Positions 1 to 18,817 of a DNA stretch of 20,000 nucleotides are shown here, in pieces. The stretch is from IMG/VR virus record IMGVR_UViG_3300020583_000016, one strand, 5' to 3'. How positions within the stretch are numbered: the first letter of the stretch is position 1; every line of letters starts with the position of its first letter. This DNA comes from an uncultured virus (IMG/VR IMGVR_UViG_3300020583_000016). Its lineage: Duplodnaviria > Heunggongvirae > Uroviricota > Caudoviricetes. A program made the position numbers and the translations under genes. The notes under the pieces are model-generated. The model was not told the DNA's origin. It saw only the letters and a program-made list of their open reading frames with translations, and searched no databases.

Positions 1-1122
1 CCCGGCGCCGGTTGCGGTCAGACACAATGCGTTCGCGGTCGGCACCTTCATCACATAACCCACACCGACCGAATAGGAAAACGGCTGGCTTGCGGTTACT
101 CCCATTGCGCCGGTGAGGTTGGTCGTACCTGTCCCGCAACTTGAGCCGGTGCCGTACACCCACTGCAGCGTGCCTGCGGTCGCAATCTGCGATAGCTGGT
201 AACCGCACACGTAAATCGAATTCAGGGTTTGCGCTGCGATGATCTGTGTGGTTCCCGCGGCCGCGGCTATGACGGCGACACTTTGCTTCGGCAAGGATCC
301 GGACTGACAAGGATCGTTGACCGCGTGATTTGAGAGCCCTGGCACCGCAAAAACGTATTCACCGGTGATCGTGGTTCCCCCGCCGGGCGCGGTATAGGCA
401 ACCGTGGCGAAAGGACACGCGGTATCGGGAATTTGAAAGGCCTGGCCGCTCGAGCTATTTGCGAGTGTGACGTTAAGGGGCTGCGTTCCCGCGGTCGAGA
501 ACGTTCCTCCGAACCCGGTCACCGTGGAGCAAGTGATGGTGAGAGTTCCGCCGGCGATCGCGGTGCCGTATTTGAAAAAGTAAGTGCCGGCGCTCGAGCC
601 GAACGGAGTCTGAAAGGTGTCGGTTTCGTTCACCGTCGCATCGGCGCCGTTGTACTCCACTTTGTCGATCTGGCCGGCAAGATACGAACCGTTGTCCTCG
701 TTGAAGGTTGCCCACGCACCGCTATAGGAGAGTGTGAAAGTTGCGGTGTTCGGGCTGCAGGTCACAACGATTTGCGCTTTGGGATAGTAGCCGGTTCCTT
801 TCAGCGTTCCTGAAGTAAACAGGAATCCGGCGCCCGAGGGCTCGAGCACGTCTGAGATCTGCACGATGTTGCCGGACCGGTCGACTCCATCGATCACGGC
901 TTGAAACTTCGTCGCGCCGGTGACCGCGGTAAAACTCGCATAGTGCTGCGTCTGCCCTAGATTCTGAATCGGGAAAGTCTGCGCGGATCCGGTACAAGTT
1001 GCGTTTGTCGCAAGGGTCTGCTGTTCGGTTTGTGGTGCCACGTAGCCGATGAACTGCGCGTGCGCGACATCTGCGACAAACGCAACAAACGCAACAAACG
1101 CAACTAGGAAACTCTTTCGCAT
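1..1122 (-). CDS. Secreted beta-rich protein, putative spike/receptor-binding protein (3' end outside window, >=374 aa)
   Basis: Translated by hand: ATG at 1122, open frame to base 1, AGAAGG upstream. Starts MRKSFLVAFVAFVAFVADVAHA|QFIGYVAPQ (Sec signal with AHA site). Rich in T/G/S/A with 8 Cys. Absent from the ORF track because there is no stop in the window. Confidence 0.85.
   Translation of the reverse strand, partial: MRKSFLVAFVAFVAFVADVAHAQFIGYVAPQTEQQTLATNATCTGSAQTFPIQNLGQTQHYASFTAVTGATKFQAVIDGVDRSGNIVQISDVLEPSGAGFLFTSGTLKGTGYYPKAQIVVTCSPNTATFTLSYSGAWATFNEDNGSYLAGQIDKVEYNGADATVNETDTFQTPFGSSAGTYFFKYGTAIAGGTLTITCSTVTGFGGTFSTAGTQPLNVTLANSSSGQAFQIPDTACPFATVAYTAPGGGTTITGEYVFAVPGLSNHAVNDPCQSGSLPKQSVAVIAAAAGTTQIIAAQTLNSIYVCGYQLSQIATAGTLQWVYGTGSSCGTGTTNLTGAMGVTASQPFSYSVGVGYVMKVPTANALCLTATGAG
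1078..1104. repeat. 9-nt tandem repeat (aaacgcaac)x3 encoding VAF-VAF-VAF in the signal peptide h-region
   Basis: Directly visible as aaacgcaacaaacgcaacaaacgcaac, preceded by a degenerate copy (tgcgacaaa). Confidence 0.85.
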
Positions 1123-1127
1123 GCCTT

Positions 1128-1643
1128 CTAAGTCCAGATGTTTGAATCTTCGAGTTCGCGCGGGTAGAGATAGCCACACAACCGCGCGCCGGCTAGCTGG
1201 CCGGCAACTACGATTCCCCCGTTCGGGCCGGCGGGGTTGTTAAAGATCGTTACCGAGATCACTTGATTTTCGAAAATGCGAAAGCCGGAAATCTCGGTCG
1301 GGTTGGCCGGCGAACCGAGTGATGCGGGAATCGCGGCATAACTGTTCGCGGCCGGCGGGGGAGCTCCGTCGACTAGGATCCGCCAGAGAATGTCTCCGGT
1401 TCCCTCGGTCCATCCACCACCGACGAAGTTATTCGCAACTTTGTTGATCACACCGTTCCGGCCGATCGGGACGGTGAACTTCAGAATCGTTGCCTCTGCG
1501 TTGATCGCCGGCAGAGTCACGTAAGCGATCTGATCGATGTTTTCCCAATTGATTGGCGGATAGATCCACAGAGGCAAGCCCGTTCCCGCCATCTCGGGCG
1601 TGGGTGGATACATCCGGCGTACGCTGCGGCTGCTTTGTAACAC
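1128..1643 (-). CDS. Small beta-sandwich virion protein (putative minor capsid/penton-like), 171 aa
   Basis: GTG start directly after the upstream TAA, with AGGAG RBS. Alternating hydrophobic beta strands, ending in the strand ARLCGYLYP. Confidence 0.7.
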   Translation of the reverse strand: MLQSSRSVRRMYPPTPEMAGTGLPLWIYPPINWENIDQIAYVTLPAINAEATILKFTVPIGRNGVINKVANNFVGGGWTEGTGDILWRILVDGAPPPAANSYAAIPASLGSPANPTEISGFRIFENQVISVTIFNNPAGPNGGIVVAGQLAGARLCGYLYPRELEDSNIWT

Positions 1644-2201
1644 TTACTCTCCTATGCTCAGAACCGGGCCGCCTGGGAAATCGGGCACTCCTGGCCGCGG
1701 TTCGTTGAATCGCATGGCTAGACCGTAAAACATCATTTCGATGGTGTTGGTCACGGTTTCAAAGTTCTGTACCACCACAAGAAGCTGTGAGTCGGGTTCG
1801 TCGAAGGGATACGGCTCACGCAAGAAAAACGGTGATCTCGGTCCGCCTCCGTTATCGCCGCCGATGTTGGCGCGCATCACTCCGCGATCGGCAAAGCGGA
1901 GTTGCTTTTTGGTGTCATAGAACTGCGCGCGGAATCCGCCGTTGACATTCGACGTCGAGGTTGTGCCGATGGCGAGCAGTGTGAAATGACGTTGCAGGTT
2001 CACGCGCGCCTGTTGGGTGTCACGTGCGGCGAGAACAAAGTTCACGGCTTCCCAATCGGGACCCATTCCTTTCAGGTCACCGCATGGGGGATGTTTTTCT
2101 CCCATGCGGTACACCTGAACCTGATAGCGGAATAGGGGCAGCATCCGCGCGAGGGGATGCGTGAGCGTATGCCGCAACGTGTATGGTTTGACTCCTGGCA
2201 C
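1644..2201 (-). CDS. Small beta-sandwich virion protein, paralogue of 2216-2686, 185 aa
   Basis: PFFLREPYPF...TNTIEMMFYGL aligns by eye with AFPLAVPYIM...TNTVQVVFNGF of the neighbouring protein. Confidence 0.72.
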   Translation of the reverse strand: MPGVKPYTLRHTLTHPLARMLPLFRYQVQVYRMGEKHPPCGDLKGMGPDWEAVNFVLAARDTQQARVNLQRHFTLLAIGTTSTSNVNGGFRAQFYDTKKQLRFADRGVMRANIGGDNGGGPRSPFFLREPYPFDEPDSQLLVVVQNFETVTNTIEMMFYGLAMRFNEPRPGVPDFPGGPVLSIGE

Positions 2202-2215
2202 TTAGTTCACCCGCC

Positions 2216-2686
2216 TTAATTAACCTTGGGTCTAGGCCACAGTTTGAAACCGTTGAAAACCACCTGAACGGTGTTCGTTGCTCCGCTCGCATCTGTAAAC
2301 AGAAGCGAGTACACACGTGTGGCCGGCATGATGTAGGGCACCGCCAGGGGGAAGGCCGCGGCTGCCTGTGCGGTTCCCGCCCAGAGGTCGATATTGATGC
2401 CGTTGAACGTGGTCGCGCCCGATGTCGCACTCGCGGTGGTACCGATGAAATCGCGCCCGGTGGCTTGTTCTTTCATCAGCACTTTGAGCAAGTTCGATGT
2501 GCGCGAAGCTTCCACCCACCACCATTCAAAATCGGCGTCGCTCAAAATCTGCAACTGGTTCGGATCCTGGGTTGCGTTCGCCGGCACCGCGCGATCAAGC
2601 ACGTATTGAAAAAACTGCCGTTCAAACTGATCATCCTGATTCTGTTGCTGCGCTGGTTGCGCTTGCGTTGTTCCGTCTCCGTACAT
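2216..2686 (-). CDS. Putative single jelly-roll capsid protein (second/minor capsid), 156 aa
   Basis: Strong AAGGAGG RBS. About 8 predicted beta strands, Gln-rich N-terminus, and position directly downstream of the putative MCP. Confidence 0.72.
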   Translation of the reverse strand: MYGDGTTQAQPAQQQNQDDQFERQFFQYVLDRAVPANATQDPNQLQILSDADFEWWWVEASRTSNLLKVLMKEQATGRDFIGTTASATSGATTFNGINIDLWAGTAQAAAAFPLAVPYIMPATRVYSLLFTDASGATNTVQVVFNGFKLWPRPKVN

Positions 2687-2724
2687 GGCTAAACCTCCTT
2701 TCCCTGAAAATTCGGCACCCGGAT

Positions 2725-2765
2725 CGAACCGGATTGCTGCCCGCTCCCGAGAGCAATCCGATTCG
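2725..2765 (-). terminator. Intergenic stem-loop after the putative MCP (attenuator/mRNA stabiliser)
   Basis: cggattgct (2730-2738) pairs with agcaatccg (2752-2760), extended by cgaa/ttcg. No clear U-tract. Confidence 0.55.
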
Positions 2766-2782
2766 TCTCGAGTCCCTGTGGT

Positions 2783-3553
2783 TTACAGGATCGCTCGCGC
2801 CAATACTCCCTCGAGATACACGTGCAAGTTGATGCCGGTACCGACGAAGATTGTCGTGGGTGATGCTGCCAGCGTGGTGAACGCCGAAGATCCGGTGATC
2901 GTTGGATCGAGCACAACCGAAAAATTCTGGTTCTGTTCGATCAATTGACCGAGGATCGGTTCCATCGGATCGAGGCCGGGAATCTGTGGCATGGGGTCCG
3001 TGATGGTAGCGACGTTCTGCGCTGTGGGCCAACCGTTCGACGCGGTGCTTCCGAGGGTTGCTGCGGTCGGAGAGACACCACTCCAGAAACCACCGGCGCC
3101 GGCAGGACACTTGGACACAAGTGCAGTCCAATAGTCTTTGCCGCTGATCGTGAGTTGCGCCAGGGTCTGACCGATGAACGAGTTCAAGTCCTGCGGTCCA
3201 ACGTCAGAACGAAGTACAACTGCTACCGCTTTCACCAGGAATTTCTTGGGAGCATCGAGCATGCCGGGTTGGACCAAGTTCGTGTGATAGAGGGTCTTTG
3301 TGAACGCGGATCCGCCCGAGGGCGTGTAAGATGCACCGATCGGCTGTGCGAACAACTGCTGTTTCGTTACCGCCGTTGCCACTGCGACGCCGTAGAAGTC
3401 ATAGAGCGGCTGAACCAAGTACTCGAGTTGCCCTGCCACAATGGGGTTGTTGCGTAGCATCTTGAGTTTTGGCCGGCCGATCTCTCTCTCTTCTATGGCG
3501 TTGCAGCGATCAAAGCGCGACGTGTAACGAGATTTAAAATTTGTTTTGACCAT
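2783..3553 (-). CDS. Putative major capsid protein (inferred single jelly-roll), 256 aa
   Basis: AAGGAGG RBS and hairpins on both sides. Basic N-terminal arm, then a beta-rich body (QPLYD...KTLYHTNL..PGML..P.KFLVKAV...LHVYLEGVLAR) with no TM segment. Fold is inferred. Confidence 0.68.
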   Translation of the reverse strand: MVKTNFKSRYTSRFDRCNAIEEREIGRPKLKMLRNNPIVAGQLEYLVQPLYDFYGVAVATAVTKQQLFAQPIGASYTPSGGSAFTKTLYHTNLVQPGMLDAPKKFLVKAVAVVLRSDVGPQDLNSFIGQTLAQLTISGKDYWTALVSKCPAGAGGFWSGVSPTAATLGSTASNGWPTAQNVATITDPMPQIPGLDPMEPILGQLIEQNQNFSVVLDPTITGSSAFTTLAASPTTIFVGTGINLHVYLEGVLARAIL

Positions 3554-3583
3554 TTCTTTTCCGCCTCCTTTCGGGTCAGAATG

Positions 3584-3630
3584 CGCGGTTCAACCGCGAA
3601 GCTTTGAGGGAGTGCGCTATCCACACTCCC
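3584..3630. promoter_or_regulatory. Two short stem-loops in the leader of the putative MCP gene
   Basis: cgcggtt/aaccgcg (3584-3598) and gggagtg/cactccc (3608-3630). Confidence 0.5.
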
Positions 3631-4181
3631 TAGTAGTTGCCGGCGTAACGGCTGCGGAAACGATGGAACCCCATTCCCGCCATCTTTGCGGCTACGGCTG
3701 CCGGATGTACGGCAGTTCCGCCCGCTGCTGGCAATGCAATCGCTCCACCGGGGCCGGGAAAGAAGATCGATCCCGCTCCGCGGTTAAATGAACCGCCAGG
3801 TACGCCCGCTTGTAGGTACTGACTGGATGACGTCGGTACCGCGAAATAGGACGGTGCGTACAGTCCAAGTCCGATCGATTGCGCAACACCGAGTTGGTGC
3901 AGTGCCTTGATGATGGTTGCCACAAGGCCGCCTTTCACGAGTTCTTCACTCGCTTTTGCGCCTCCAACCATCTTGCCGGCAAAGCCCATTGCTACCGCCG
4001 CGGCTCCGGTTGCTGCCACTCCTGCCCATCCCTGTAAACTCGAGATGAGGCCTGAGACATACAGCGAACCGAGAGCACCGGCCGCATTCCATCCCGCATC
4101 GACCACAACCCCGCTCGATAGTCCGAACGGATTGCGTCGACGGCCGCGATGGTGATGCCGCCTTCTGTAGTGTTTCGCCAT
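3630..4181 (-). CDS. Virion membrane protein with Arg/His-rich N-terminus and 2-3 Gly/Ala-rich TM helices (183 aa; alternative GTG start at 4268)
   Basis: ATG at 4181 has AAGGAG 10 nt upstream. Sequence MAKHYRRRHHHRGRRRNP, then hydrophobic segments, ending MAGMGFHRFRSRYAGNY. Confidence 0.75.
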   Translation of the reverse strand: MAKHYRRRHHHRGRRRNPFGLSSGVVVDAGWNAAGALGSLYVSGLISSLQGWAGVAATGAAAVAMGFAGKMVGGAKASEELVKGGLVATIIKALHQLGVAQSIGLGLYAPSYFAVPTSSSQYLQAGVPGGSFNRGAGSIFFPGPGGAIALPAAGGTAVHPAAVAAKMAGMGFHRFRSRYAGNY

Positions 4182-4276
4182 TTGGGTTGTTCTCCTTTCT
4201 TCCCCGGCACCGGCGAAATAGCTTCGCGGTGTGTAAGAGGATGGATTGAAAATTCGTATCTGAGGCACGTTTCCCT

Positions 4277-4552
4277 CTAAGCTGCTTCGTCGACCGGGAT
4301 AACGTCTGCCTTGTTTGCGGTCATCACGGTTTCGACTTCGATGGCCTTCCCGTCTGGTTCAACCGAGATATCCACAAGATTTGCGTCGTCGTGCACTCGC
4401 AACACGGTGCCGGTGAAGCTGTGCGATTTGTCATGTGTCTGTGTGAATCGCACTCGAGTGCCTTCGCTGATTTCGTCGTGCTCCATTTCCTTTCCCTCCG
4501 TATGTTCCGCCGGCGCTTCGGCCGGCTTGTGGGACACGCGACGTCTCTTCAT
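4277..4552 (-). CDS. Small protein, possible SH3/KOW-like beta barrel (91 aa)
   Basis: ATG at 4552 follows GGAGGG. EGTRVRF...FTGTVLRV...LVDISVE pattern. Confidence 0.65.
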   Translation of the reverse strand: MKRRRVSHKPAEAPAEHTEGKEMEHDEISEGTRVRFTQTHDKSHSFTGTVLRVHDDANLVDISVEPDGKAIEVETVMTANKADVIPVDEAA

Positions 4553-4556
4553 GCCG

Positions 4557-5231
4557 CTACCCTCCGAACTGAAATTTCCCTTCGACGAAGTAGCCGGCAA
4601 GTCGCTCCGGATTCGAATCGTCGATCAAAAGCGCCATATGGTTGCCGGTTTCTGGATCCACCGTGCACTTGACGCGCGCAAACGTTCCGGAAGCTCCCAT
4701 CAGCATGATTTGCAGGTGCGTGATCGGATGAAGTACTCCGTACGTTCGGCCTTCGCGATTCGTAATCTTGTCTCTGACGCGATCACCGACCACGGGGCAG
4801 CCGGTGAGTAGTTGCGGAATCCGCGGTGCGGTCTCGCCGGCCGTCTTTGGAGTCCAGCGCGGATCCGGTATGTCGGGCAAAGGAATCATGCCCGTCGGTA
4901 ACAGCAAGCTTTGCTGATCGTTCGATAGCGCGATAATCGGCGCGTCTTTGTGCGTCAACCAATCGAGTGTTAGCGAGCTCCACAGAATCGATTGCTGCAC
5001 AGAGAACGGCACCAAGCTCGCCGGGATGTTGCCTTCCTGATTCGGGTTCGCGTACCGCGGGCGCGCCTGGCTCAGTCCTTTGGTCGAGCGCTGGCCTTCG
5101 AACAAAATCGCGGTGAGTCGGCCGATGATCCTGTATTTCCGGTCACGAATCGTTTCGCGCTGAAACTTCATCACGTCCGCGATGCGATAGCGGTTCTGAA
5201 TCACAATTCCGGGTGCGGTTGCTGTTGCCAA
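4557..5231 (-). CDS. Hypothetical protein (224 aa; start re-assigned to TTG 5231)
   Basis: GAGGAG lies 10 nt upstream of TTG 5231. The longer ORF start at 5363 would run through a 61-nt hairpin. Confidence 0.65.
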   Translation of the reverse strand: MATATAPGIVIQNRYRIADVMKFQRETIRDRKYRIIGRLTAILFEGQRSTKGLSQARPRYANPNQEGNIPASLVPFSVQQSILWSSLTLDWLTHKDAPIIALSNDQQSLLLPTGMIPLPDIPDPRWTPKTAGETAPRIPQLLTGCPVVGDRVRDKITNREGRTYGVLHPITHLQIMLMGASGTFARVKCTVDPETGNHMALLIDDSNPERLAGYFVEGKFQFGG

Positions 5232-5257
5232 GTTCTTTCTGCTCCTCAAAAAGTTCT

Positions 5258-5318
5258 CAAAGGGGACGGTCCCAGGGAGAGGGTCTGTCAGACTTTCTCT
5301 GGCGGGACCGCCCCTTTG
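5258..5318. promoter_or_regulatory. Long intergenic stem-loop
   Basis: caaagggg/cccctttg plus cggtccc/gggaccg plus inner gtctg/cagac. Confidence 0.65.
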
Positions 5319-5352
5319 CTTGCCGGGGTGCCTGACGGCTGTCCGGACAAGA

Positions 5353-6516
5353 TCAATTGACAATCCCTTCCCGTCTCACTTCGTACGCTCCACCTTCGAA
5401 CAAAATCCGTTTGTGCCGGCTGTCAAATAACACCGTTGGCCGTTCGTCCGTCTCTTCCCCGAGTTGGTGACGCCACTCGTCGTACTCGGGTTCTTTCACG
5501 TGTTCCTTGCGCTGCTTGTAATCGATGCGGCGCGCCTCCCCAAGTTCGAAGAGGCCGTCACCGCGATCGAGCGCGCGAAACACGGAAAGCGAGCCGGATA
5601 GATCCTGATCCCCACCCACGAAATACAAGTGCCGGGCTGATTCGTCAGAAACCAGAATGGGGCGGGGCTCTTTGAAATCGATCTGTTGCACCTGGCCGCC
5701 GGCGCGGGGTTTCACATAGAGCACCAAGAGTTCCCCGAGTTTTGCGTAATCACCGGCCGGCATGTGGGGCTCGGTTAGCGTTTCTTCCCACTCGACCGGC
5801 ATGCCGGTGAAATCTTCACGGATGCCCGCGGCGTCCGGATTCTGCCGGCGGATCGCTTTCTTCTGCCGTGACTTCGGGCGCCGGGTCCAGGGATGAAAAA
5901 CTCCCTTCTCGAAAGTTCCGAGCTCTACGTTCTTGCGGCGCTTCTTCAACAGTCCGGGGAGACTGGTTCCGATACTCGCGACGTCGAGCAGTGCACCGAT
6001 GCCGGGGTTCTGTCCTGGCGCAATTCCACCTTCCGGAATCCAGTCGTATTTGTGCTTTCCTGCGCGCGCTCGAGTCACACGCACCAGGCCCGCAACCCGT
6101 TTCTGTTTCCCTGTGCGGATCAAACCTGGCGCCTGATAGCTGGCACCCGCGGCGCGCGCGCGTAATGAACTGAACCGGTCGGGGTTCACGTTCGTGGGAT
6201 TCTGCCGCGGCGTGCGGATCACAATCGTCGTGCCGGGTGGCAGAGCAATTTCGCGTGTGTCGACTTCGCTCGGGTTCGCACCCATTACTAAAAGTTCGTG
6301 CGGGTTCTTCTGCGCTTTCTTTTTCCGTTTGATCGGGTTGGTGCGCGGGCTCATCACGATGTGCCGATAACCTTTGTTCGTGAGAGTCGACTTGATCCAT
6401 GCGCCTTTGGTTTTCTTCTCTTTCGCAATCGCGTCTTTCTTGTCCTTGAACGCACCATGAAACATGTAGCCGTAGCCGGCGCCCGCGTTCTTCCGTTTTT
6501 TCGTTCGTGCTGCCAT
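5353..6516 (-). CDS. Lys/Arg-rich core-like protein with seven NP motifs and an internally duplicated C-terminal domain (387 aa)
   Basis: ATG abuts the upstream TAG. Basic low-complexity N-terminal ~228 aa, then two LGE..Y...RP....D.....L/I.F.GG repeats. Confidence 0.8.
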   Translation of the reverse strand: MAARTKKRKNAGAGYGYMFHGAFKDKKDAIAKEKKTKGAWIKSTLTNKGYRHIVMSPRTNPIKRKKKAQKNPHELLVMGANPSEVDTREIALPPGTTIVIRTPRQNPTNVNPDRFSSLRARAAGASYQAPGLIRTGKQKRVAGLVRVTRARAGKHKYDWIPEGGIAPGQNPGIGALLDVASIGTSLPGLLKKRRKNVELGTFEKGVFHPWTRRPKSRQKKAIRRQNPDAAGIREDFTGMPVEWEETLTEPHMPAGDYAKLGELLVLYVKPRAGGQVQQIDFKEPRPILVSDESARHLYFVGGDQDLSGSLSVFRALDRGDGLFELGEARRIDYKQRKEHVKEPEYDEWRHQLGEETDERPTVLFDSRHKRILFEGGAYEVRREGIVN

Positions 6517-7257
6517 CTAGAAAAGTCTCTTCAGCAAAGGCACCGCTACCAGAAGTCCAATTCCTGCGATCGCAAGCGTTGTTGCGTTCTCGGAAACCCA
6601 CGTTGTTAAATCTGGCGCCGCGGACGGTGATGTCAAACCTGGCAAAGCGAAACCGCCCGGGTTCAACACGCCGGCTGCTTGATAATTTGGAGCGGTCGAG
6701 GGGCTCTGAACCTGGGTGATCGCGTCCGTTTGTGGGAACACTCCGGCAACCGCGTAAACATAGTGGCGAACAATCGAGATCACGTCATTCACGGAAGAAA
6801 AACCCATTCCGTTCGTGACTTGCAAAACCAGTGTTACGGAAAAGGGATTGTTCATTCCGATTGCGTTGGCGATGGTTGCGCCGATGCTCGCACTCGTCGG
6901 TGCCTGTAAAACCGTAAGCTGTCCGTCTCCGTTCAATTGGCTGACTACAGCGTTCACGAGTGATTGCGGATCTTGAACGGTGGTCCAGGTGCCTTTGTAA
7001 GTAAGAATTGCGCCTGGCGGAATCGAAGCATCTCCAAGAAATCCGAGAACGGCGCCGGCAAGCCCGTGAAGCTTGTAACCACCGGATTCGGTGAACGGTG
7101 GATTTTGTCCCATGCCGCGCAACCGCCAGGGCGCAAACGGATGACCGGCCGGTGTCGGTTTCACTCCGCTGAGCATGGTTGCTGCGAAAGGATCGGTTTC
7201 CCCGTAGGGCCGGTAACCCTGGCGATAGAGTGAGAGGTCGTAATTGACGTAACTCAA
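6517..7257 (-). CDS. C-terminally anchored virion protein (246 aa; TTG start overlapping upstream TGA)
   Basis: GGAGG RBS and TTGA overlap. C-terminus TLAIAGIGLLVAVPLLKRLF. Confidence 0.75.
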   Translation of the reverse strand: MSYVNYDLSLYRQGYRPYGETDPFAATMLSGVKPTPAGHPFAPWRLRGMGQNPPFTESGGYKLHGLAGAVLGFLGDASIPPGAILTYKGTWTTVQDPQSLVNAVVSQLNGDGQLTVLQAPTSASIGATIANAIGMNNPFSVTLVLQVTNGMGFSSVNDVISIVRHYVYAVAGVFPQTDAITQVQSPSTAPNYQAAGVLNPGGFALPGLTSPSAAPDLTTWVSENATTLAIAGIGLLVAVPLLKRLF

Positions 7258-7664
7258 CGTCGCCTCCCTGATGGTCCGCTGAGTAGGAGCACCGCGGCCG
7301 CGGCTGCAGCGAGAAGTAGCCACGTGCTCGAGCTCGTACCGGTCAATGGACTAAATAGCGATGACGTCACCGGCACCGCGACGCGCGGCGAAGGGCCGGG
7401 AGTCAAACCTTTTGTGAGGCTTGAAATCGCGGATGGAATCGAACTCGCGATCGCGCTACCGGCCGACGGAATCAGACTGGTCGCACCCTGTGCGGCTTGT
7501 GCGGCTGAAACGCTTTCCGCCTCCGTCAAACCGGGGTCGTTGTACATCGGGAAATCGTTAACACTCGTGTCGAACGTCTGCGGTGTCTGAATGTCGGTGA
7601 AGAGCGGACTATCTACAAGATCACCGAGGCCGCGGAAACTTCGACTTGAACGAACCACGTTCAT
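7254..7664 (-). CDS. C-terminally anchored Ser/Thr-rich virion protein (136 aa)
   Basis: ATGA overlap at 7661-7664. Starts MNVVRSSRSFRGLGD and ends WLLLAAAAAAVLLLSGPSGRRR. Confidence 0.75.
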   Translation of the reverse strand: MNVVRSSRSFRGLGDLVDSPLFTDIQTPQTFDTSVNDFPMYNDPGLTEAESVSAAQAAQGATSLIPSAGSAIASSIPSAISSLTKGLTPGPSPRVAVPVTSSLFSPLTGTSSSTWLLLAAAAAAVLLLSGPSGRRR

Positions 7665-8515
7665 CGCATCACCAACCAAACCGCGGCGCCGATCAGAAGC
7701 AAAGGCATAAGACTTGAACCGCCGGTGATCGAACTGAGTGCGCTCGTGAGTCCGCCGCTCGCTCCGGACGGGGAGAAATCGAGGGTGTACGCTCCGCGCG
7801 TCGAAGCGCCGTAACTCGAGCCGAAAACTTGCGGAATCTCGGCAACGTACGGTCCCTGGGACGATTGCGATTGTCCCTGTACTGCGGCAACAATTCCGTT
7901 TGGTCCGGTGATGCCTGGCGTGAGTTGGTAGCAGGCGATGCAGCAACCGGCACCGATCGAACCGACACACGGTTGCTTGCCGGGAGTTTCCACCGGACAA
8001 CTAGAACCACTCGAGCAACCGTTTCGCCCGGGCTGAAGTTGCGGTGTAACCACAGTCCAGTAACCCGGCATCACCGTGGCAACTGCTTGCAACACTCCGC
8101 TTGCATCGATCTGTCCGGATTTGAAAGCGGATTGAATCTGGCGTACGTCCGCGTCGAAACCCTGCACCGCGATATTCACCGCGGAGTTTTCGTTTTTCGC
8201 TTGCTTGGCGCGGAGCTCGTGACCGGCGAGCAGGCCGGCGATGATTCCGACAATCGCACCCACACCGGCACCGATCGGGCCGGCAAAGGAACCCGCTGCG
8301 GTTGAAGCTGCGATCGCGCTCGTGCCTGCGGCTGCGATCGGCGCGGCTGCGCCGACAATTTGCGCCGCGGCGCCGAAGTATCCAAGCTGATAGATCGGGG
8401 TGTGTGGCGAGCGGACCGCGTTGCCAATTTTGTGATGTCTCCGGATCCGGTGACGGTCGAAATGCTGAACTCCCATCGAATGCAGGGGCGTGAGTGGTGC
8501 GGAAACGTTCGGCAT
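7661..8515 (-). CDS. Membrane protein with glycine-zipper helix, 6-Cys cluster and C-terminal anchor (284 aa); possible DNA-delivery protein
   Basis: TGATG overlap. Contains GPIGAGVGAIVGIIAGLLAG and CSSGSSC...PC...GCCIAC, ending LLLIGAAVWLVMR. Confidence 0.72.
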   Translation of the reverse strand: MPNVSAPLTPLHSMGVQHFDRHRIRRHHKIGNAVRSPHTPIYQLGYFGAAAQIVGAAAPIAAAGTSAIAASTAAGSFAGPIGAGVGAIVGIIAGLLAGHELRAKQAKNENSAVNIAVQGFDADVRQIQSAFKSGQIDASGVLQAVATVMPGYWTVVTPQLQPGRNGCSSGSSCPVETPGKQPCVGSIGAGCCIACYQLTPGITGPNGIVAAVQGQSQSSQGPYVAEIPQVFGSSYGASTRGAYTLDFSPSGASGGLTSALSSITGGSSLMPLLLIGAAVWLVMR

Positions 8516-9570
8516 CACTTTTTCCCCTTCATCATGAGAATCAGGGCGAGTACTCCACCGAGTGCAACCCATTCGTTGTTGAGGCCGGGAATGATGGTCT
8601 GCTCGGAAAGCCAAGCGCTAAACCCGCTCGTTGCCGGCACTCCGCTCGCTGATGCTGAAGCTTGCGCGAGTGAGACGCACGCGCCGGATCCCAGAGGATC
8701 GAGGGTGTAACCGCTCGCACATTGCGGCGCGCCGGCCGTCGGCATGCACGAACCGGACGGACCGGAGTTGATGTAACCGGGCGCGCACTGTGGCGGGGGC
8801 GAATCGATCAGCGAGTAACCCGGGGTGATGCCGGGAACAATCTGCCCCTGGCTCGGCATGTAGTCGGCCGGCGATGCTGCAACCGTGGGCGCCGGCGCCG
8901 GGCTCGCCGGCGGAATCGTCCAGGGCACCATGTACTGCGGCGCGGGTGTGGCTGGTGCCGGCTGCAGGACGGTCGAGGTTGCGCCGCTCGATCTCGATGG
9001 AATCGTTGTGGGCGGTTGGTAGTCTGGTCCGAAGTACGGATAGCGCGGCTCAATCGATTCCCCGGGCATCATTCCGTACGGCCGGCGAACTGCGATCGAT
9101 TGACCGACAGGAATTCCACTCGGTACCGCTCCGAGTCCTGCATAATTTCCGGGTGCTTCTGCATAACCGGGCGCGTGCTGCGTTTGCTTTCCGCGAACGA
9201 CGTTGGTTCCGCCGCTCGCGTTCGGCCGCGGCCGGGTTTCCCCTGGCGAGCGATAGACGTAATCCGAGTGGGTCTGTCCTTCCCTAAACGCGGTTCCGCC
9301 CCAATTCTTGTCCCAAGGACCTTTCGAGGTTCCCTGTTGTGGCAATTGCGAGTGACCACTCGGCCGGATTTGTGGGCCTTCGGAAAGTTCACTTGGTCCG
9401 AAGGGCCATCCACCACCACCGGGCGCCCAAGATCTCAACGAATCAGGTCCGATAAAGCCATGGTATTGACCACCCACCGGGCCGCCGGGTATCGAATGAC
9501 GCCAACCGCTCCACGCGAAATCGGGTGAGCTCGAGTAACCGCGGAATCCTGGCATGCGCACCCGGCTCAT
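8515..9570 (-). CDS. Gly/Pro-rich disordered protein with two C-x-x-G-Y..C repeats and C-terminal anchor (351 aa)
   Basis: ATGA overlap. Repeats QCAPGY...GSC and QCASGY...GAC, ending WVALGGVLALILMMKGKK. Confidence 0.72.
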   Translation of the reverse strand: MSRVRMPGFRGYSSSPDFAWSGWRHSIPGGPVGGQYHGFIGPDSLRSWAPGGGGWPFGPSELSEGPQIRPSGHSQLPQQGTSKGPWDKNWGGTAFREGQTHSDYVYRSPGETRPRPNASGGTNVVRGKQTQHAPGYAEAPGNYAGLGAVPSGIPVGQSIAVRRPYGMMPGESIEPRYPYFGPDYQPPTTIPSRSSGATSTVLQPAPATPAPQYMVPWTIPPASPAPAPTVAASPADYMPSQGQIVPGITPGYSLIDSPPPQCAPGYINSGPSGSCMPTAGAPQCASGYTLDPLGSGACVSLAQASASASGVPATSGFSAWLSEQTIIPGLNNEWVALGGVLALILMMKGKK

Positions 9571-9725
9571 GCTTCACCCTTCGAAACTACGATCGCGGCA
9601 ATCTGTTCGTGCGTGAGTTGCTCGAGCTCATCACCGGTGTGGAACTGGAATTGACTTTGGCGAAGCATTTCAACCGCGTCGAGGAAATCAGAAACCGGAT
9701 CCGAAGTTTGCAGGACGACGATCAT
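9567..9725 (-). CDS. Small hypothetical protein (52 aa)
   Basis: Start overlaps the upstream stop (TAATG) and stop overlaps the downstream start (ATGA), filling the gap exactly. Confidence 0.65.
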   Translation of the reverse strand: MIVVLQTSDPVSDFLDAVEMLRQSQFQFHTGDELEQLTHEQIAAIVVSKGEA

Positions 9726-10681
9726 TAGCGGCGCCCCATTGCGAGCAAGACAACCCCGCCGATCAAAAGCCACGGCAACCACGAACCGGTTGTAGTGAGT
9801 CCGAGTTGGCTGGAATAGCCCGCGGTCGGAAGTCCGTAACCTGGGGTGAGCGGCGTCGCAAAGCTCGCGTACGGTCCGGTTGCAACTACACCGGTCGGAG
9901 TTTGGATTTTCGTCGGCTGTCCCGAGGCCGCGGCGATCAGTGCCGGTGTTTCCTGAATGGTCGAGGAAACCAGCGAACTCCAATCAACCCCGTCATCCTG
10001 TCCAAGTCCGTAATGCGGCACCGTGGCGACGCCGGCGAGCCCGCGCAAACCGACTTTGCCGACCGTTGAAGGACTCGAGCAACCGCACCGACCGCCACAA
10101 CCGCAACCGCTGAGGTCCTGAGAACTCGAGTCGGTGAGGGACCACACTCTTTTTCGGTAGTAGATCGGGGGTTCTACACCGAACTGCGCATCGACGCGCG
10201 CGGCATCCATCGGAATCCACTGGCCGGAACCTGGCGGAACTTCTGCCTCGAGGTAAACGTGAGAAAACTCGTTGGGCTGGTTCGCGTCGGCTGCAATCGT
10301 CGCGAGGCGCGCCGGGTAACCAAGCGCAATCATCAGCGCACCGAGCAGCATCGAGATGTCGTCGCAATCGCCGGCGCGGATTTTAAGAAGTTCTTGTGGG
10401 GGATAAAGCTTTTCTTTTGTGACCGGATCTTTGGTGTAGCGAATGTTGCGCTTTACCCACTCGTAAACCGCATTCGCTTCCCCGATGTCGTTGTAGGGCA
10501 GGACTCCGCGCACCAAGTCGATCGCGAAACGAACGAACTGCGCATCGGATACCGCCTGGTCGACGAGTTTCCGCATGAGCGAGATGGTTTGTTTGGTGCC
10601 GGGCTCACCGGCAAGGAGTGGGGCGCGATACGCGAGGGCGGGATGCGAAACCGATGGTGAACCGAGAAAAATAGGGCTCAA
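9725..10681 (-). CDS. Transglutaminase-like (Cys-His-Asp) enzyme/cysteine protease with C-terminal membrane anchor
   Basis: VYEWVKRNIRY, GDCDD, FSHVY and WIPMDA match the transglutaminase-like superfamily triad. Ends WLLIGGVVLLAMGRR. Start codon is uncertain (TTG). Confidence 0.88.
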   Translation of the reverse strand: MSPIFLGSPSVSHPALAYRAPLLAGEPGTKQTISLMRKLVDQAVSDAQFVRFAIDLVRGVLPYNDIGEANAVYEWVKRNIRYTKDPVTKEKLYPPQELLKIRAGDCDDISMLLGALMIALGYPARLATIAADANQPNEFSHVYLEAEVPPGSGQWIPMDAARVDAQFGVEPPIYYRKRVWSLTDSSSQDLSGCGCGGRCGCSSPSTVGKVGLRGLAGVATVPHYGLGQDDGVDWSSLVSSTIQETPALIAAASGQPTKIQTPTGVVATGPYASFATPLTPGYGLPTAGYSSQLGLTTTGSWLPWLLIGGVVLLAMGRR

Positions 10682-12291: not shown

Positions 12292-12400
12292 AAGCGGTCG
12301 AATCCCTGTTGCGGAAAGGAGCGTGCGGAGAATTGCCAGAGCCGGAACCCGGCGGTTCTCGGGAGAGTGGCCGCCGGCTTCTGAATTCGACGCATCGACG

Positions 12401-12607
12401 ATGACGGTTACCGAAACGTTTGCGGATAAGACACTCACGTGCGCCGGCTGTCGCAAGGAATTCATTTGGACGGCACGTGAACAGCAATTTTATGCAGAGA
12501 AGGGTTTCACCAACGAACCCAAGCGTTGTCGAGACTGCCGACGAACGAAAAAGATTGCCGGCGGTGCTCGCAACGGAAACGGCGCTCGCGCATCCCGCGG
12601 CCGGTGA
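12401..12607 (+). CDS. Zinc-ribbon protein (zf-trcl-like)
   Basis: DKTLTCAGCRKEFIWTAREQQFYAEKGFTNEPKRCRDCR matches the zf-trcl pattern as recalled. Confidence 0.85.
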   Translation: MTVTETFADKTLTCAGCRKEFIWTAREQQFYAEKGFTNEPKRCRDCRRTKKIAGGARNGNGARASRGR

Positions 12608-14061: not shown

Positions 14062-14135
14062 AAGCTCGATGGTTCTGTATCGGTCTGTCGGTGGGGATGG
14101 GCCTTTGCGCGCTGATTCACCTGGCGATCTACTGA
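14058..14135 (+). CDS. 25-aa single-TM peptide MKARWFCIGLSVGMGLCALIHLAIY
   Basis: GTGA overlap with the lysin stop, and it fills the gap to the convergent M48 gene. Below the ORF track size cut-off. Confidence 0.5.
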   Translation: MKARWFCIGLSVGMGLCALIHLAIY

Positions 14136-14773
14136 TGAGTTTCACTCAGGAGCAAGCGCCGCATGTTCGTTATCCGGTTCGGTGTGATCGGGTGATCAAT
14201 CCCTAGCTGCCGAAACAAACCCGTGAGTCCAGTCGAAGTGTCCCCGGAATACATTTCCAGTCGACCGAAAGCGCCGGCCGCGGCGTAGGGGGAATAGCCG
14301 GCGAGAATCAGATGCCTAAAACCGATCTCATCGGCGCGCATCTCGCAAGCTACCTGATCTTGTCGGTTGTGCTGGCCGAAACATACGGAATCGATTGTGT
14401 GACCGAGTTCGTGCGCAACGATGAATGCAATTTCGTCCTCGTTGCCCATGAAATCCACCATCGCGGATGGAATGCAGACAATCGATAGTTGCGCGCTGGT
14501 GTGCGCGTTCGCGTTGATCTCTGATTTCGAGACAAGCGCAATAATCACTCGGGGTTCATGTTCTCGCATGGGAAGTAAGTTCTGACTCGCGCGGGCGAAG
14601 GCTGCAATCGAGGGGCGCGCCGGGTCGGGTGGATCTGCGAGGATTCCTCTCGGTTGTTGGTCGAAACTCGCAATCGTTCCTAGAACGGGGGCACCACAGA
14701 CGGTCGAAATTTGATTAGCGGTTTGTGCTGCCAGGGGAACGGTGAGAGTGAGAACGAGCAGAAGTGACTTCAT
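14129..14773 (-). CDS. Secreted M48-family zinc metalloprotease
   Basis: Signal peptide MKSLLLVLTLTVPLAA|Q. Motifs INA, EDEIAFIVAHELGH, EMRADEIG, AGYSP and HP....RI. Confidence 0.9.
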   Translation of the reverse strand: MKSLLLVLTLTVPLAAQTANQISTVCGAPVLGTIASFDQQPRGILADPPDPARPSIAAFARASQNLLPMREHEPRVIIALVSKSEINANAHTSAQLSIVCIPSAMVDFMGNEDEIAFIVAHELGHTIDSVCFGQHNRQDQVACEMRADEIGFRHLILAGYSPYAAAGAFGRLEMYSGDTSTGLTGLFRQLGIDHPITPNRITNMRRLLLSETHQ

Positions 14774-14938
14774 GGCGTGAAGATTTTAGGCGGGGAACGC
14801 GATCGCGACAAGCGCAAGCGTAACCAGCACCTTCGTAACCGACCACCGCACCATGCCTGTGAATCTAAGGAATGTTTGTGGAAAAACAGGACATGTACCT
14901 TCGTAACTTGTTGAGAGGGAAAGCGTGTGCGGTTTCAC

Positions 14939-14975
14939 TTGCATTGCGCATTAATTAGCATTACGCTGCAATGCA
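14939..14975 (+). promoter_or_regulatory. Sigma70-type promoter overlapped by a putative operator
   Basis: TTGCAT (14939-14944), 17-nt spacer, TACGCT (14962-14967). Inverted repeat tgcattgc/gcaatgca and three gcatt direct repeats. Confidence 0.6.
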
Positions 14976-15133
14976 TGAAAGACAAACTTGGGAATCAGTC
15001 CTGCATCCGATGGACCGTTGCCGACCGCAGGTTGATCCTCAGCCTGCAACGAAAAAGCGGCATTCTGTCCGTGTCGGATCTCATCCGGCAAGCGCTTCGA
15101 GCTCTGGCCGACAAACAAGGTTTAACCGCCTAA
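14975..15133 (+). CDS. Ribbon-helix-helix (CopG/Arc-like) regulator, 52 aa
   Basis: SCIRW beta strand, a helix, then G.LSVSDLIRQALRAL. First gene of the operon. Confidence 0.78.
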   Translation: MKDKLGNQSCIRWTVADRRLILSLQRKSGILSVSDLIRQALRALADKQGLTA

Positions 15134-15949: not shown

Positions 15950-16183
15950 ATGACAGCACAAGAAATTCGCGATCAGTTCGAACGGTGGGAAAAACCGTTT
16001 ATGGAAGCACTCGGGTCTAGCGATCTTGAAAAGGCGAAAGGCGCTTTGGTGTCGGTCGATGTTATTCAGGCGTACGCGCTCACGGAGATCGCAGCACAGT
16101 TAGCCGAACTGAATGAAAAATGGGATCAGACAACGTCCACTCGTACGACTTCAGCAACCCGGCATATTTCGGTGCTGGAATGA
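15950..16183 (+). CDS. Small helical hypothetical protein (77 aa)
   Basis: MTAQEIRDQFERW...LTEIAAQLAELNE, with ATGA coupling downstream. Confidence 0.62.
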   Translation: MTAQEIRDQFERWEKPFMEALGSSDLEKAKGALVSVDVIQAYALTEIAAQLAELNEKWDQTTSTRTTSATRHISVLE

Positions 16184-16542
16184 CCACCTACATCGGCATG
16201 CGGCACGACGGGCACGCGATCGTGAGTGTGGTCGATGACCGCACCCGCTGTGCTTCCATGCTCGATCCTGGGTATCGGCACGTCACCAAGTCACCCAACG
16301 GTTTTGATTGGGGATACACCGGCGCCGCTCCGTCGCAACTCGCCTTCGCGATTCTTTTAGACCACTACGGTGCACCCGGGCCGGCGTTGCTGTTCTATCA
16401 GGATTTCAAGGAATCGGTAGTCGCGTTGTGGAATGCCGACCGGTGGGAACTCACCACCGTGGAAATCGAATCGGCACTCGAAAAAATCCGCATCCTGCGC
16501 TCACGCGCCACGAAGGAACTTGCATGGAAACAATCCACCTAG
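16180..16542 (+). CDS. DUF6166-like phage protein
   Basis: SPNGFDWGYTGAAPSQLAFAIL...YQDFK..VVA....W matches the recalled DUF6166 pattern. Confidence 0.78.
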   Translation: MTTYIGMRHDGHAIVSVVDDRTRCASMLDPGYRHVTKSPNGFDWGYTGAAPSQLAFAILLDHYGAPGPALLFYQDFKESVVALWNADRWELTTVEIESALEKIRILRSRATKELAWKQST

Positions 16543-18186: not shown

Positions 18187-18392
18187 CGCGGTTACTTGCG
18201 ATTCCGGCTTTCCTTTTCGGGGTTCTGTTTCTCTGCACCATTGGCATGATCGGTGAGATCACACACAACCTTGGCTCTGGCTGGTCCTCTGGAAAGGTTT
18301 TCGGTTTCACGCTGATGGTTATGTTCGCGCTCGGTGGGTTCGTTCTTCTCGCTCTATCCGGTGTGATTCTGGTGAAAGGGGTGCCGTTTTGA
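18183..18392 (+). CDS. Small 2-TM membrane protein (69 aa)
   Basis: Two long hydrophobic segments and coupled overlaps. Confidence 0.7.
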   Translation: MTRLLAIPAFLFGVLFLCTIGMIGEITHNLGSGWSSGKVFGFTLMVMFALGGFVLLALSGVILVKGVPF

Positions 18393-18817
18393 TCGGTCAA
18401 CCGTTTCATTTCAAGGTGCCTCTACTCCCGCCGTCGGTGAACCACTACAAGCAACCGAAACGGGGTGGTGGGTGGTACCGGGCGAAGGAAGCGATCGCGT
18501 TCGTCGATGCGGTGTGTGTGTTCTCCCACAAAACCAAACTTTCGGGAAACTTCTATGGGCTCGAACTCTGGTTTTTCCTGGGACCTTCGAAACGCAATCT
18601 TTCCTCGAATGACGTTGACAACTTTCAGAAAGTGGCAATCGATGCCCTGGTGCGGGCCACGGTGATCAAAACCGATGGCCGCCTGCTCGACTTGCACGTA
18701 CACAAACGCTTCGTAGCAACCGACCGTGAAGAGCGGACGGAATACTTCGTAACAGGAAGGCAACTCGATGAGAGAGAAGTTTTTCAACAAGGGCAGTTAT
18801 CTGCTACGGCTGGATGA
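18389..18817 (+). CDS. rusA: RusA-family Holliday junction resolvase
   Basis: PPSVNHY, DVDNFQKVAIDAL and IKTD (variant of the usual DD). Confidence 0.78.
   Translation: MIGQPFHFKVPLLPPSVNHYKQPKRGGGWYRAKEAIAFVDAVCVFSHKTKLSGNFYGLELWFFLGPSKRNLSSNDVDNFQKVAIDALVRATVIKTDGRLLDLHVHKRFVATDREERTEYFVTGRQLDEREVFQQGQLSATAG

Follow-up and report, generated by a model that had tools for sequence, protein, structure and literature searches.

The particle-protein genes within 20,000 nucleotides of an uncultured virus (IMG/VR record IMGVR_UViG_3300020583_000016; hereafter the window, meaning this whole stretch of DNA) encode a short tag with the consensus [R/K]-rich, x0-3, [L/M/F]-x-G-[L/M]-[G/A]-[D/Q/E]. The tag is real, conserved, and selected at the protein level, and it is common to several protein families, its bearers being at least six mutually unrelated particle proteins: g136, g268b, g351, g318, and g212 in the window, and g171 in relatives of the virus. 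We infer that one virus-encoded factor reads it. Our preferred reading, to which we assign a probability of roughly 40%, is that the tag may be a maturation cut site, with g318, a membrane-anchored protein of the transglutaminase fold, as the candidate protease. A preliminary description of the window had listed 13 strings of a looser form, phi-x-G-x-G, at the leader and domain boundaries of most structural proteins, had likened them to the sites of the adenovirus protease adenain, and had proposed a shared maturation-cleavage or assembly signal. All 13 strings are present at the residues given there, on the minus strand; a signal common to virion proteins of this prokaryotic virus proved to be real and conserved in the sharper form of the tag, but the pattern as originally written is too loose.

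Enrichment and conservation of the tag

Enrichment within the window was assessed using 2000 whole-protein shuffles of its 14 structural open reading frames (ORFs; 3492 residues). The broad pattern, written as [MILFYVH]xGxG, was found 18 times against 12.4 expected (p = 0.07), which is not a significant enrichment; the form [MIL]xGG occurred 5 times against 5.8 expected (p = 0.69). A narrower pattern, [MILFYH]xG[LM]G, was found 6 times against 0.84 expected, a count that 0 of the 2000 shuffles reached, and occurred once against 0.48 expected in the 17 other ORFs of the window (2766 residues; p = 0.38). This narrow pattern was picked post hoc, and it was therefore retested by its recurrence among families, by block shuffles, in related genomes, and by the conservation of individual sites.

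Among dereplicated homologues, the tripeptide GLG was present in at least 40% of the members of 6 of the 14 families, compared to 0.45 families in shuffles, and L.GLG ranked 5th of 36,989 patterns of the shape a.bcd and first among those that are not Ala-rich. Shuffles that preserve local composition (30-residue blocks, 14 families, 300 shuffles) gave a sum of 2.12 for LxG[LMI]G over the 14 families against 0.48 expected, with a maximum of 1.01 in the 300 shuffles, and 1.79 against 0.14 for [LMIFYW]xG[LMI]G[DEQ]; G[LMI]G[DEQ] was present in at least 40% of the members of 3 families, and of 0 families in every block shuffle. Four of five composition-matched control patterns were flat, and the fifth, V.G[LMI]G, was slightly raised (0.74 vs 0.40, p = 0.007). 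In all 13 related genomes, [LMF]xG[LM]G occurred 3-6 times per genome against 0.5-0.9 expected under local-composition shuffles (p ≤ 0.032 in every genome and p ≤ 0.006 in 10 of the 13). The residues around the core are also biased: across 154 non-hydrophobic instances, P4 has a 4.5-fold excess of Leu, P3 a 6.8-fold excess of His, and the position after the second Gly an excess of Gln or Asp of about 4-fold; Gln stands behind G[LMI]G in 18% of instances (3.8-fold enriched).

Three other origins of the tag were considered and rejected. The codons vary between instances, and because they differ, the tag is not a repeat at the DNA level. Paralogy of the tagged families was set aside on the basis of an all-against-all profile comparison, in which only the C-terminal anchors matched one another (g284 with g318 at 90.4%, g136 with g351 at 90.3%). 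A Tat signal, a prepilin leader, and a lipobox were likewise dismissed: the sites have no hydrophobic h-region, no hydrophobic stretch behind them, and no Cys.

The individual sites were followed in dereplicated homologues within ±5 residues of each aligned position. Of the 13 strings, eight showed some conservation of the sharper tag, at frequencies ranging from 3/20 to 19/22, and five did not; these five, as judged from the alignments, are chance occurrences. The best kept is LHGLAG (7054-7071) of g268b (6517..7257; all genes and sites given here lie on the minus strand unless stated otherwise), a tail-anchored protein taken in its 246-residue form, which starts at the TTG at 7255-7257; the core [LMIF]xG[LMI] is present at this place in 19 of 22 homologues. 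A second tag of g268b, LRGMG (7108-7122), is present in 4 of 19, and both tags lie upstream of the folded middle domain. An 18-sequence alignment of g268b has 5 invariant and 7 near-invariant columns, and L62, G64, and L65 are among these 12, L-x-G-L being kept in 18 of 18 sequences within an otherwise variable region of the protein. In a further 16 database homologues of g268b, L[HS]GL is present in all 16, followed by a free residue (A, R, D, or G).

Three neighboring proteins have a similar build. The 9-residue basic start of g136 (7254..7664) is followed by FRGLG (7623-7637), which 9 of 21 dereplicated homologues retain, by a long low-complexity linker, and by a transmembrane (TM) anchor ending in RRR; from its sequence, g136 appears to be a tether-like protein, essentially tag, linker, and anchor. 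In g351 (8515..9570), YAGLG (9130-9144), which 6 of 16 homologues retain in the form NY[AR]G[LI]G, stands between a conserved N-terminal domain and a Pro-rich linker, and the protein closes with a TM anchor whose last residues are KGKK. The membrane protein g284 (7661..8515) also has a C-terminal anchor, and its tag-like strings are weak: at LHSMG (8471-8485), phi-x-G-[LMI]-G is found in 3 of 20 homologues, and LGYFG (8372-8386), with 2 of 22, is not conserved, the relative L004/L051 having LHGLG at this second place.

The gene for g318 (9725..10681) encodes a protein of 318 residues whose enzyme core precedes a Cys cluster and a two-tag linker; behind these come a conserved C-terminal region and a TM anchor that terminates in GRR. 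The first linker tag, LRGLAG (10031..10048, residues 212-217), is kept in 6 of 12 homologues, and the second, HYGLG (10001..10015, residues 223-227), which is followed by QDDGVDW, in 4 of 12; other homologues shown read LGQD or FGQD at the place of the latter. In a 71-homologue alignment, L215 of LRGLAG and G227 of HYGLG are each kept in at least 90% of the sequences. The linker was also surveyed in the 120 listed of 385 database homologues, of which 93 were scored and 27 had no anchor; G[LMI]G was present in 64 of the 93, and G[LMI]G or G[LMI]AG in 77.

In g212 (3630..4268), a hydrophobic, Gly-rich protein with a His/Arg-rich start, the tag is C-terminal: MAGMG (3669-3683) has phi-x-G-[LMI]-G as its counterpart in 12 of 21 homologues and is followed by the conserved basic tail GFHRFRSRYAGNY, and all g212 relatives shown have [LM]-G-[FY]-HRFRSRYAG. 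The two ends of g212 have further recurrent features, the start being (H/R)n followed by N-P-F-G-L-S-S-G and the end a near-invariant G[FY]HRFRSRYAG.Y. The element R-R-x-N-P ahead of a Leu/Gly site recurs in the g171 leaders of relatives. The conserved capsid-associated protein g171 (1128..1643) has a short leader in the window, in which MAGTG (1578-1592) is a degenerate string found in 0 of 25 homologues at the aligned place, and short-leader forms such as this one have no tag. Elsewhere in the leader, 11 of the 21 g171 relatives with a recognizable leader have [basic]-x-L-x-G-L-G-[DQE], and the unit occurs twice in the leaders of relatives L002 and L007.

The remaining listed strings are not tags. 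LKGMG (2061..2075), found in 1 of 31 homologues, lies inside a conserved folded block, G-x-G-P-x-W-E, of g185; MYGDG (2672..2686) at the start of g156 is in 0 of the 5 homologues with residues there, most relatives starting later; and LSGCG (10100..10114) in g318, found in 0 of 12, is part of the Cys cluster CGCGGRCGC. The placement that had been proposed for the motif, between a leader or linker and the folded or anchored part of the protein, holds in g136, g268b, g318, g351, g212, and the long-leader forms of g171, but not in g185, where the string is within the fold.

The tag is also present in a distant relative, L094, a 45.7-kb contig on which the gene order of the window is kept. Its capsid protein is a remote relative of the window's, found with the query P0140 (38% identical to the capsid protein g256); one of four remote capsid queries found a locus, this one, and the L094 capsid protein used as a query returned the same contig. 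Four adjacent L094 proteins contain 11 L-[R/A/H]-G-[L/M] sites, among which LGRLRG[L/M] occurs five times with differing codons. The L094 lineage has G-L-[A/N]-G-[V/Y], comparable to LRGLAG of g318, and 15 database homologues of the L094 enzyme keep Arg-rich versions of both linker sites. Fewer tags are found in another distant relative, L093 (3 vs 0.6, p = 0.024).

The candidate enzyme and competing readings of the tag

The enzyme core of g318 (10202..10492, residues 64-160) is matched by the transglutaminase family PF01841 at E 2.9e-13 (score 50.5 bits, cut-off 23), and the same family is above its cut-off in five of five complete relatives, these being contigs of 32-36 kb with direct terminal repeats. 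The triad comprises Cys106 (10364-10366), His141 (10259-10261), and Asp159 (10205-10207); all three residues are invariant in the 71-sequence alignment, and all three motifs are kept in 13 aligned sequences, namely g318 and 12 dereplicated homologues. The best match among solved structures is 3isr, an uncharacterized protein named "putative cysteine protease" (E 1.2e-4), and there is a weak match to Peptidase_C93 (E 0.089); this name and this match are indirect hints that g318 may have peptidase activity. In the phage SSIP-1, the enzyme domain has a homologue in gp34 (27.5% identity, E 2e-12), annotated as "structural protein" in the phage record. The domain also matches a pleomorphic membrane virus of archaea, Geoglobus acetivorans pleomorphic virus 1 (E 9e-7), and two unannotated fecal phage records; the phage records for these last matches are BK065156.1, MT835496.1, and MT839222.1. 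A complex prediction of g318 residues 1-190 with g268b residues 30-80 scored 0.00 against a mark of 0.32 and carries no weight either way.

Under the preferred reading, g318 would act on the tag with its Cys106-His141-Asp159 triad from the capsid-facing side of the viral membrane, to which it is anchored and on which all tagged segments would likewise lie. Leu at P4, Gly at P2, and Leu or Met at P1 would be the residues recognized, and the cut would fall at or beside the [L/M]-G bond. As a result, g136 and the long g171 leaders would lose basic N-terminal peptides, the N-terminal module of g268b would be freed, the catalytic domain of g318 would come away from its own anchor, and a 13-residue basic C-terminal peptide would be released from g212; such a process would parallel adenovirus maturation with an enzyme of unrelated fold. 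Conservation of the tag is one-sided, with P4 to P1 fixed and the downstream positions loose, as is expected of a protease that reads P4-P1. Gly at P2 and a small residue at P1' are typical of narrow cysteine-protease clefts and are counted for cleavage, as are the basic C-terminal peptide behind the g212 tag and the topology that enzyme and substrates probably share; the presence of the enzyme throughout the relatives and its own tags would point to g318 as the agent.

Several observations weigh against this reading. Generic adenain sites show no significant enrichment in the window, where the strict [MIL]xGxG is found 9 times against 5.8 expected (p = 0.12), and their combined consensus reaches p < 0.05 in just 4 of the 13 related genomes; plain G[LMI]G shows no excess over block shuffles (6 vs 5.2 families). 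A cut after residue 13 of g136 would leave linker and anchor only. SSIP-1 has the enzyme without enrichment of the tag (1 vs 0.8 among 25 late proteins), and g318 could instead be an entry lysin. The tags also occur in tandem, with two or three in g268b, two in some g171 leaders, and five within ~55 residues of the L094 enzyme linker, and such arrays suit multivalent binding at least as well as cutting. In a permutation test the flanks of the tag were more alike within genomes than between them (1.27 vs 0.88, p = 0.001); without L094 the values are 0.76 within and 0.90 between genomes, and a genome-specific flavor of the flanks, being significant only because of L094, was rejected.

Some of these points suit a reading in which the tag is never cut and acts as a docking or targeting peptide for a putative pocket on the capsid shell or another hub, which we regard as possible but doubtful. 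The tail-anchored proteins and g171 would then be tethered to the shell or loaded into the particle, and the enzyme would be tagged cargo, for example an entry lysin, which agrees with its carrying the tag itself and with SSIP-1 keeping it where the tag is not enriched. The tags are found where long flexible linkers end, as in g136, and tandem copies suit avidity. There is a precedent in encapsulin cargo, for which PMC11126975 describes a conserved LTVGSLR on an Ala/Pro-rich disordered linker that binds a hydrophobic pocket of the shell. The one-sided conservation is unusual for a docking core, however, and the Gly at P2 and the small residue after Leu/Met are what a narrow protease cleft demands. 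Evidence for cutting and for docking would be joined if the tag first loads or tethers proteins and is then removed or severed by the viral protease. The capsid-targeting sequences of phage T4 are of this kind, being targeting tags that are cut off by the prohead protease; such a double role is the least parsimonious reading and we consider it improbable.

A protease other than g318 might read the tag, whether the M48 metallopeptidase encoded at 14129-14773, a host enzyme, or an unrecognized viral one, and most core proteins are without a family assignment; we rate this as very unlikely. The M48 protein (Pfam E 1.2e-10) has an N-terminal signal peptide, which the tagged segments lack, and its gene has the orientation of the particle genes but stands among early genes of the opposite strand. 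The peptidase recurs in the relative G001 (E 2.6e-15) and in 0 of the 5 other complete relatives, all of which keep the tag; as tag protease it was rejected, and because of its absence from all five it is taken as an accessory gene. Adenain (PF00770) and Ulp1 (PF02902) families were each found in 0 of the 5 complete relatives at E ≤ 1 and in none of the scanned window proteins. Still less is to be said for the tag being functionless, a product of Gly/Leu-rich composition, of the alignment of low-complexity linkers, and of after-the-fact choice of a motif. In its favor, the broad pattern falls short of significance in the window, local composition accounts for plain G[LMI]G, and there are the five chance strings, but block shuffles never reach the observed values of the 5-6-residue forms, enrichment extends to every related genome tested, L-x-G-L persists in the variable region of g268b, and LGRLRG[LM] is repeated with differing codons; this reading is largely refuted. 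We give the lowest odds of all to g318 being a true transglutaminase that cross-links particle proteins through the Gln behind the tag (GLGQ). It has the fold and the triad of transglutaminases, and the excess of Gln after G[LMI]G agrees with such a role, but GLGQ, GLGD, and GLGE alternate at homologous sites in g136, g268b, and g318, and cross-linking through Gln was rejected because Asp and Glu, which are unable to be acyl donors, replace Gln at the same sites.

The virus and its relatives

The window contains the particle-gene module of a ~34 kb uncultured soil virus whose lineage is an undescribed family. Bases 1-10681 form a tight minus-strand operon of ~15 genes, after which a plus-strand block begins. 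The best 80 of 131 matching metagenome stretches were used as relatives, and the same gene order was found on nine viral contigs of 14.6-35.3 kb. In the relative G001, whose capsid protein is 92% identical to g256, genes for an integrase, a resolvase, and an ATPase of the HerA/DUF87 type are also present; the ATPase, a 556-residue protein, matches PF01935 (DUF87, HerA central domain) at E 6.5e-10 and the NCBIfam HerA model at E 9.4e-11, in line with the FtsK/HerA type of packaging ATPase, and its gene lies outside the window. In a search for prophages and hosts, g171 gave one match, a 34.7-kb contig in a metagenome-assembled genome of Terriglobia, and g256 gave none; a soil bacterium of the Terriglobia (Acidobacteriota) is the probable host. 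Among deposited phages, tblastn found no match to g256 or g171. Pfam searches of 16 window proteins returned one significant hit, PF01841 in g318, and PHROGs and NCBIfam scans of all structural proteins found nothing beyond that family.

The capsid protein g256 (2783..3553) has no tag. A profile search of 1.84 billion representatives retrieved 221 relatives, of which 111 sequences were used for folding, and the resulting AlphaFold2 model is a single jelly roll with a predicted local distance difference test (pLDDT) score of 88.3 and a predicted template modeling (pTM) score of 0.81; with a 9-sequence alignment only, the pLDDT was 30.2. The best structural match by VIA-align is the capsid protein of SPV1 (6oj0_T; Z 8.0, root-mean-square deviation 3.4, 136 aligned), followed by those of HHIV-2 (Z 6.3), P23-77 VP17 (6.2), HCIV-1 (6.0), and VP16 (5.1), with unrelated jelly rolls interleaved among these matches and a Z of 8 being only middling for that search. 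Foldseek gave no match to the model at E ≤ 0.001, profile searches of g256 and g171 against solved structures returned nothing at E ≤ 10, and Pfam matched 0 of 30 remote capsid homologues. A lead from the ESM Atlas towards a double jelly roll (PM2 P2 / PRD1 P3, score 0.77) was rejected, as the model has a single one.

Five consecutive proteins, g268b, g136, g284, g351, and g318, end in a hydrophobic helix and a basic tail, and no terminase, portal, or tail families were found in the Pfam, PHROGs, and NCBIfam scans of the particle proteins. Because of the g256 fold, the ATPase, the tail-anchored proteins, and this lack of terminase, portal, and tail families, the particle is probably tailless with an internal membrane. 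The C-terminal parts look like a shared tail-anchor module; their ends (window 6517-10681) read KRLF, RRR, MR, KGKK, and GRR, and the build resembles C-terminal sorting signals, with no sortase-type motif seen in the five proteins.

Other observations concern the records and genes around the tagged proteins. A protein identical to g268b (P0271) comes from a contig of 66,678 bases. Contigs whose capsid protein is 99-100% identical to g256 measure 33.8-34.1 kb, roughly half as much, and the longer record could be a concatemer or an assembly artefact. In relatives L004 (at ~11.5-13 kb) and L005 (at ~3.6-4.8 kb), g185 is present as two tandem paralogues, and the capsid gene of L003 has an internal stop. 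The C-terminus of g268a (4557-5363) reads F-x-[FML]-G-G in 9 of 22 aligned homologues and mostly A-G, A-G-Y, or F-S in the others. In g387 (5353-6516), the N-terminal half is very basic and a conserved element, E-L-L-[VIL]-[ML]-G-A-N-P, may be a second short motif; it is doubled in L094 (6464-7351). At the edge of the window, g393 (1-1179) runs off the end and has a signal-peptide-like start followed by a conserved A-Q-[FV]-x-x-Y-x-S-P-Q-T, an element also found in L093 and L094; very large proteins, one of 1889 residues, come after the g393 counterpart in L094, and this region may be a spike or host-recognition module. The early plus-strand block contains four Pfam-matched proteins (12323-12607, 14927-15133, 16120-16542, and 18389-18817), with matches to a zf_Tbcl treble-clef family (E 5e-22), weakly to a ribbon-helix-helix family, to DUF6166 (E 3e-24), and weakly to a RusA-like family.

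Comparison with known systems and implications

Among the systems compared, the adenain system is the one to which the sites had been likened at the outset, and the likeness stands for the tag core. The accounts in PMC3386624 and PMC4246237 give the adenain sites as a type-1 form, (M/I/L)XGX-G, and a second form, (M/I/L)XGG-X, with IVGL|G in pVI, and the substrates as pIIIa, pVI, pVII, pVIII, pX, and pTP. The tag has Leu/Met at P4, Gly at P2, Leu or Met at P1, and a small residue after it, which fits the type-1 form and is of the same type as IVGL|G. As in adenoviruses, several unrelated internal proteins of the particle bear the sites, and some of these proteins are very basic; the particle is probably built of jelly-roll capsid proteins; and g212 has a basic tail behind its last tag (...MAGM-GFHRFRSRYAGNY) comparable to pVIc. 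In contrast to adenoviruses, no C5 or Ulp1-type gene is present here or in any of the five complete relatives, the candidate enzyme is transglutaminase-fold and membrane-anchored, P1 is only Leu or Met, GG-X sites are not enriched, and the host is bacterial. Because the defining protease family is absent, the virus is not a member of the adenain system (MEROPS C5 / clan CE), though it may work like it. Tectiviruses are described in PMC4405056 as lacking an Ulp1-like protease, which is thought there to have been acquired in a eukaryotic setting.

Other systems share single parts of this arrangement. Encapsulin cargo and the T4 targeting sequences likewise have a short Gly/Leu tag on a flexible linker that is common to unrelated proteins; their shell is of the HK97 type, whereas a jelly roll is found here, and the tags of this virus are also internal, tandem, and on membrane proteins. 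Transglutaminase-fold enzymes that cut at small-residue motifs or remove leaders are known from the BTLCP/LapG family (Peptidase_C93) and from the lasso-peptide leader peptidases. These have the fold and the Cys-His-Asp triad of g318, but g318 has no significant sequence membership among them and is tail-anchored and virion-type. In SSIP-1, a phage in culture that lacks a tail and has an internal membrane, gp34 is anchored C-terminally like g318 and several late proteins are tail-anchored, but similarity of its capsid protein to g256 is undetectable by tblastn and the tag is not enriched. The Sphaerolipoviridae (P23-77, HHIV-2, and HCIV-1) and SPV1 have capsid proteins that the g256 model matches best (Z 8.0-5.1, middling values for that search), a HerA/FtsK-type ATPase as in G001, and many small membrane proteins, but their capsid proteins have no sequence similarity to g256.

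Tailed phages, herpesviruses, adenoviruses, and giant viruses characteristically mature by proteolysis. A literature search of limited scope found neither a tag of this sort nor proteolytic maturation described for prokaryotic tailless membrane-containing viruses, and the words protease, proteolytic, and cleaved are absent from a 2019 review of membrane-containing phages (PMC6356626). It is conceivable, at rather less than even odds, that a bacterial single-jelly-roll lineage with an internal membrane matures in the adenovirus style, with L-x-G-L|G sites, a virion-resident transglutaminase-fold protease, and a pVIc-like basic peptide set free by one cut. If true, proteolytic maturation with this site logic either had a separate origin in prokaryotic jelly-roll viruses or is older than the acquisition of the Ulp1-like protease in eukaryotes. 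The pairing of tag and enzyme is also relevant to how the adenovirus/polinton maturation module originated. Should the tag instead serve for docking and stay uncut, it would represent the first sorting code of viral internal-membrane proteins and a handle for engineering cargo into such particles. In either case, a conserved tag together with a universal cysteine enzyme provides a testable hypothesis for how these particles are assembled, loaded, or primed for uncoating.

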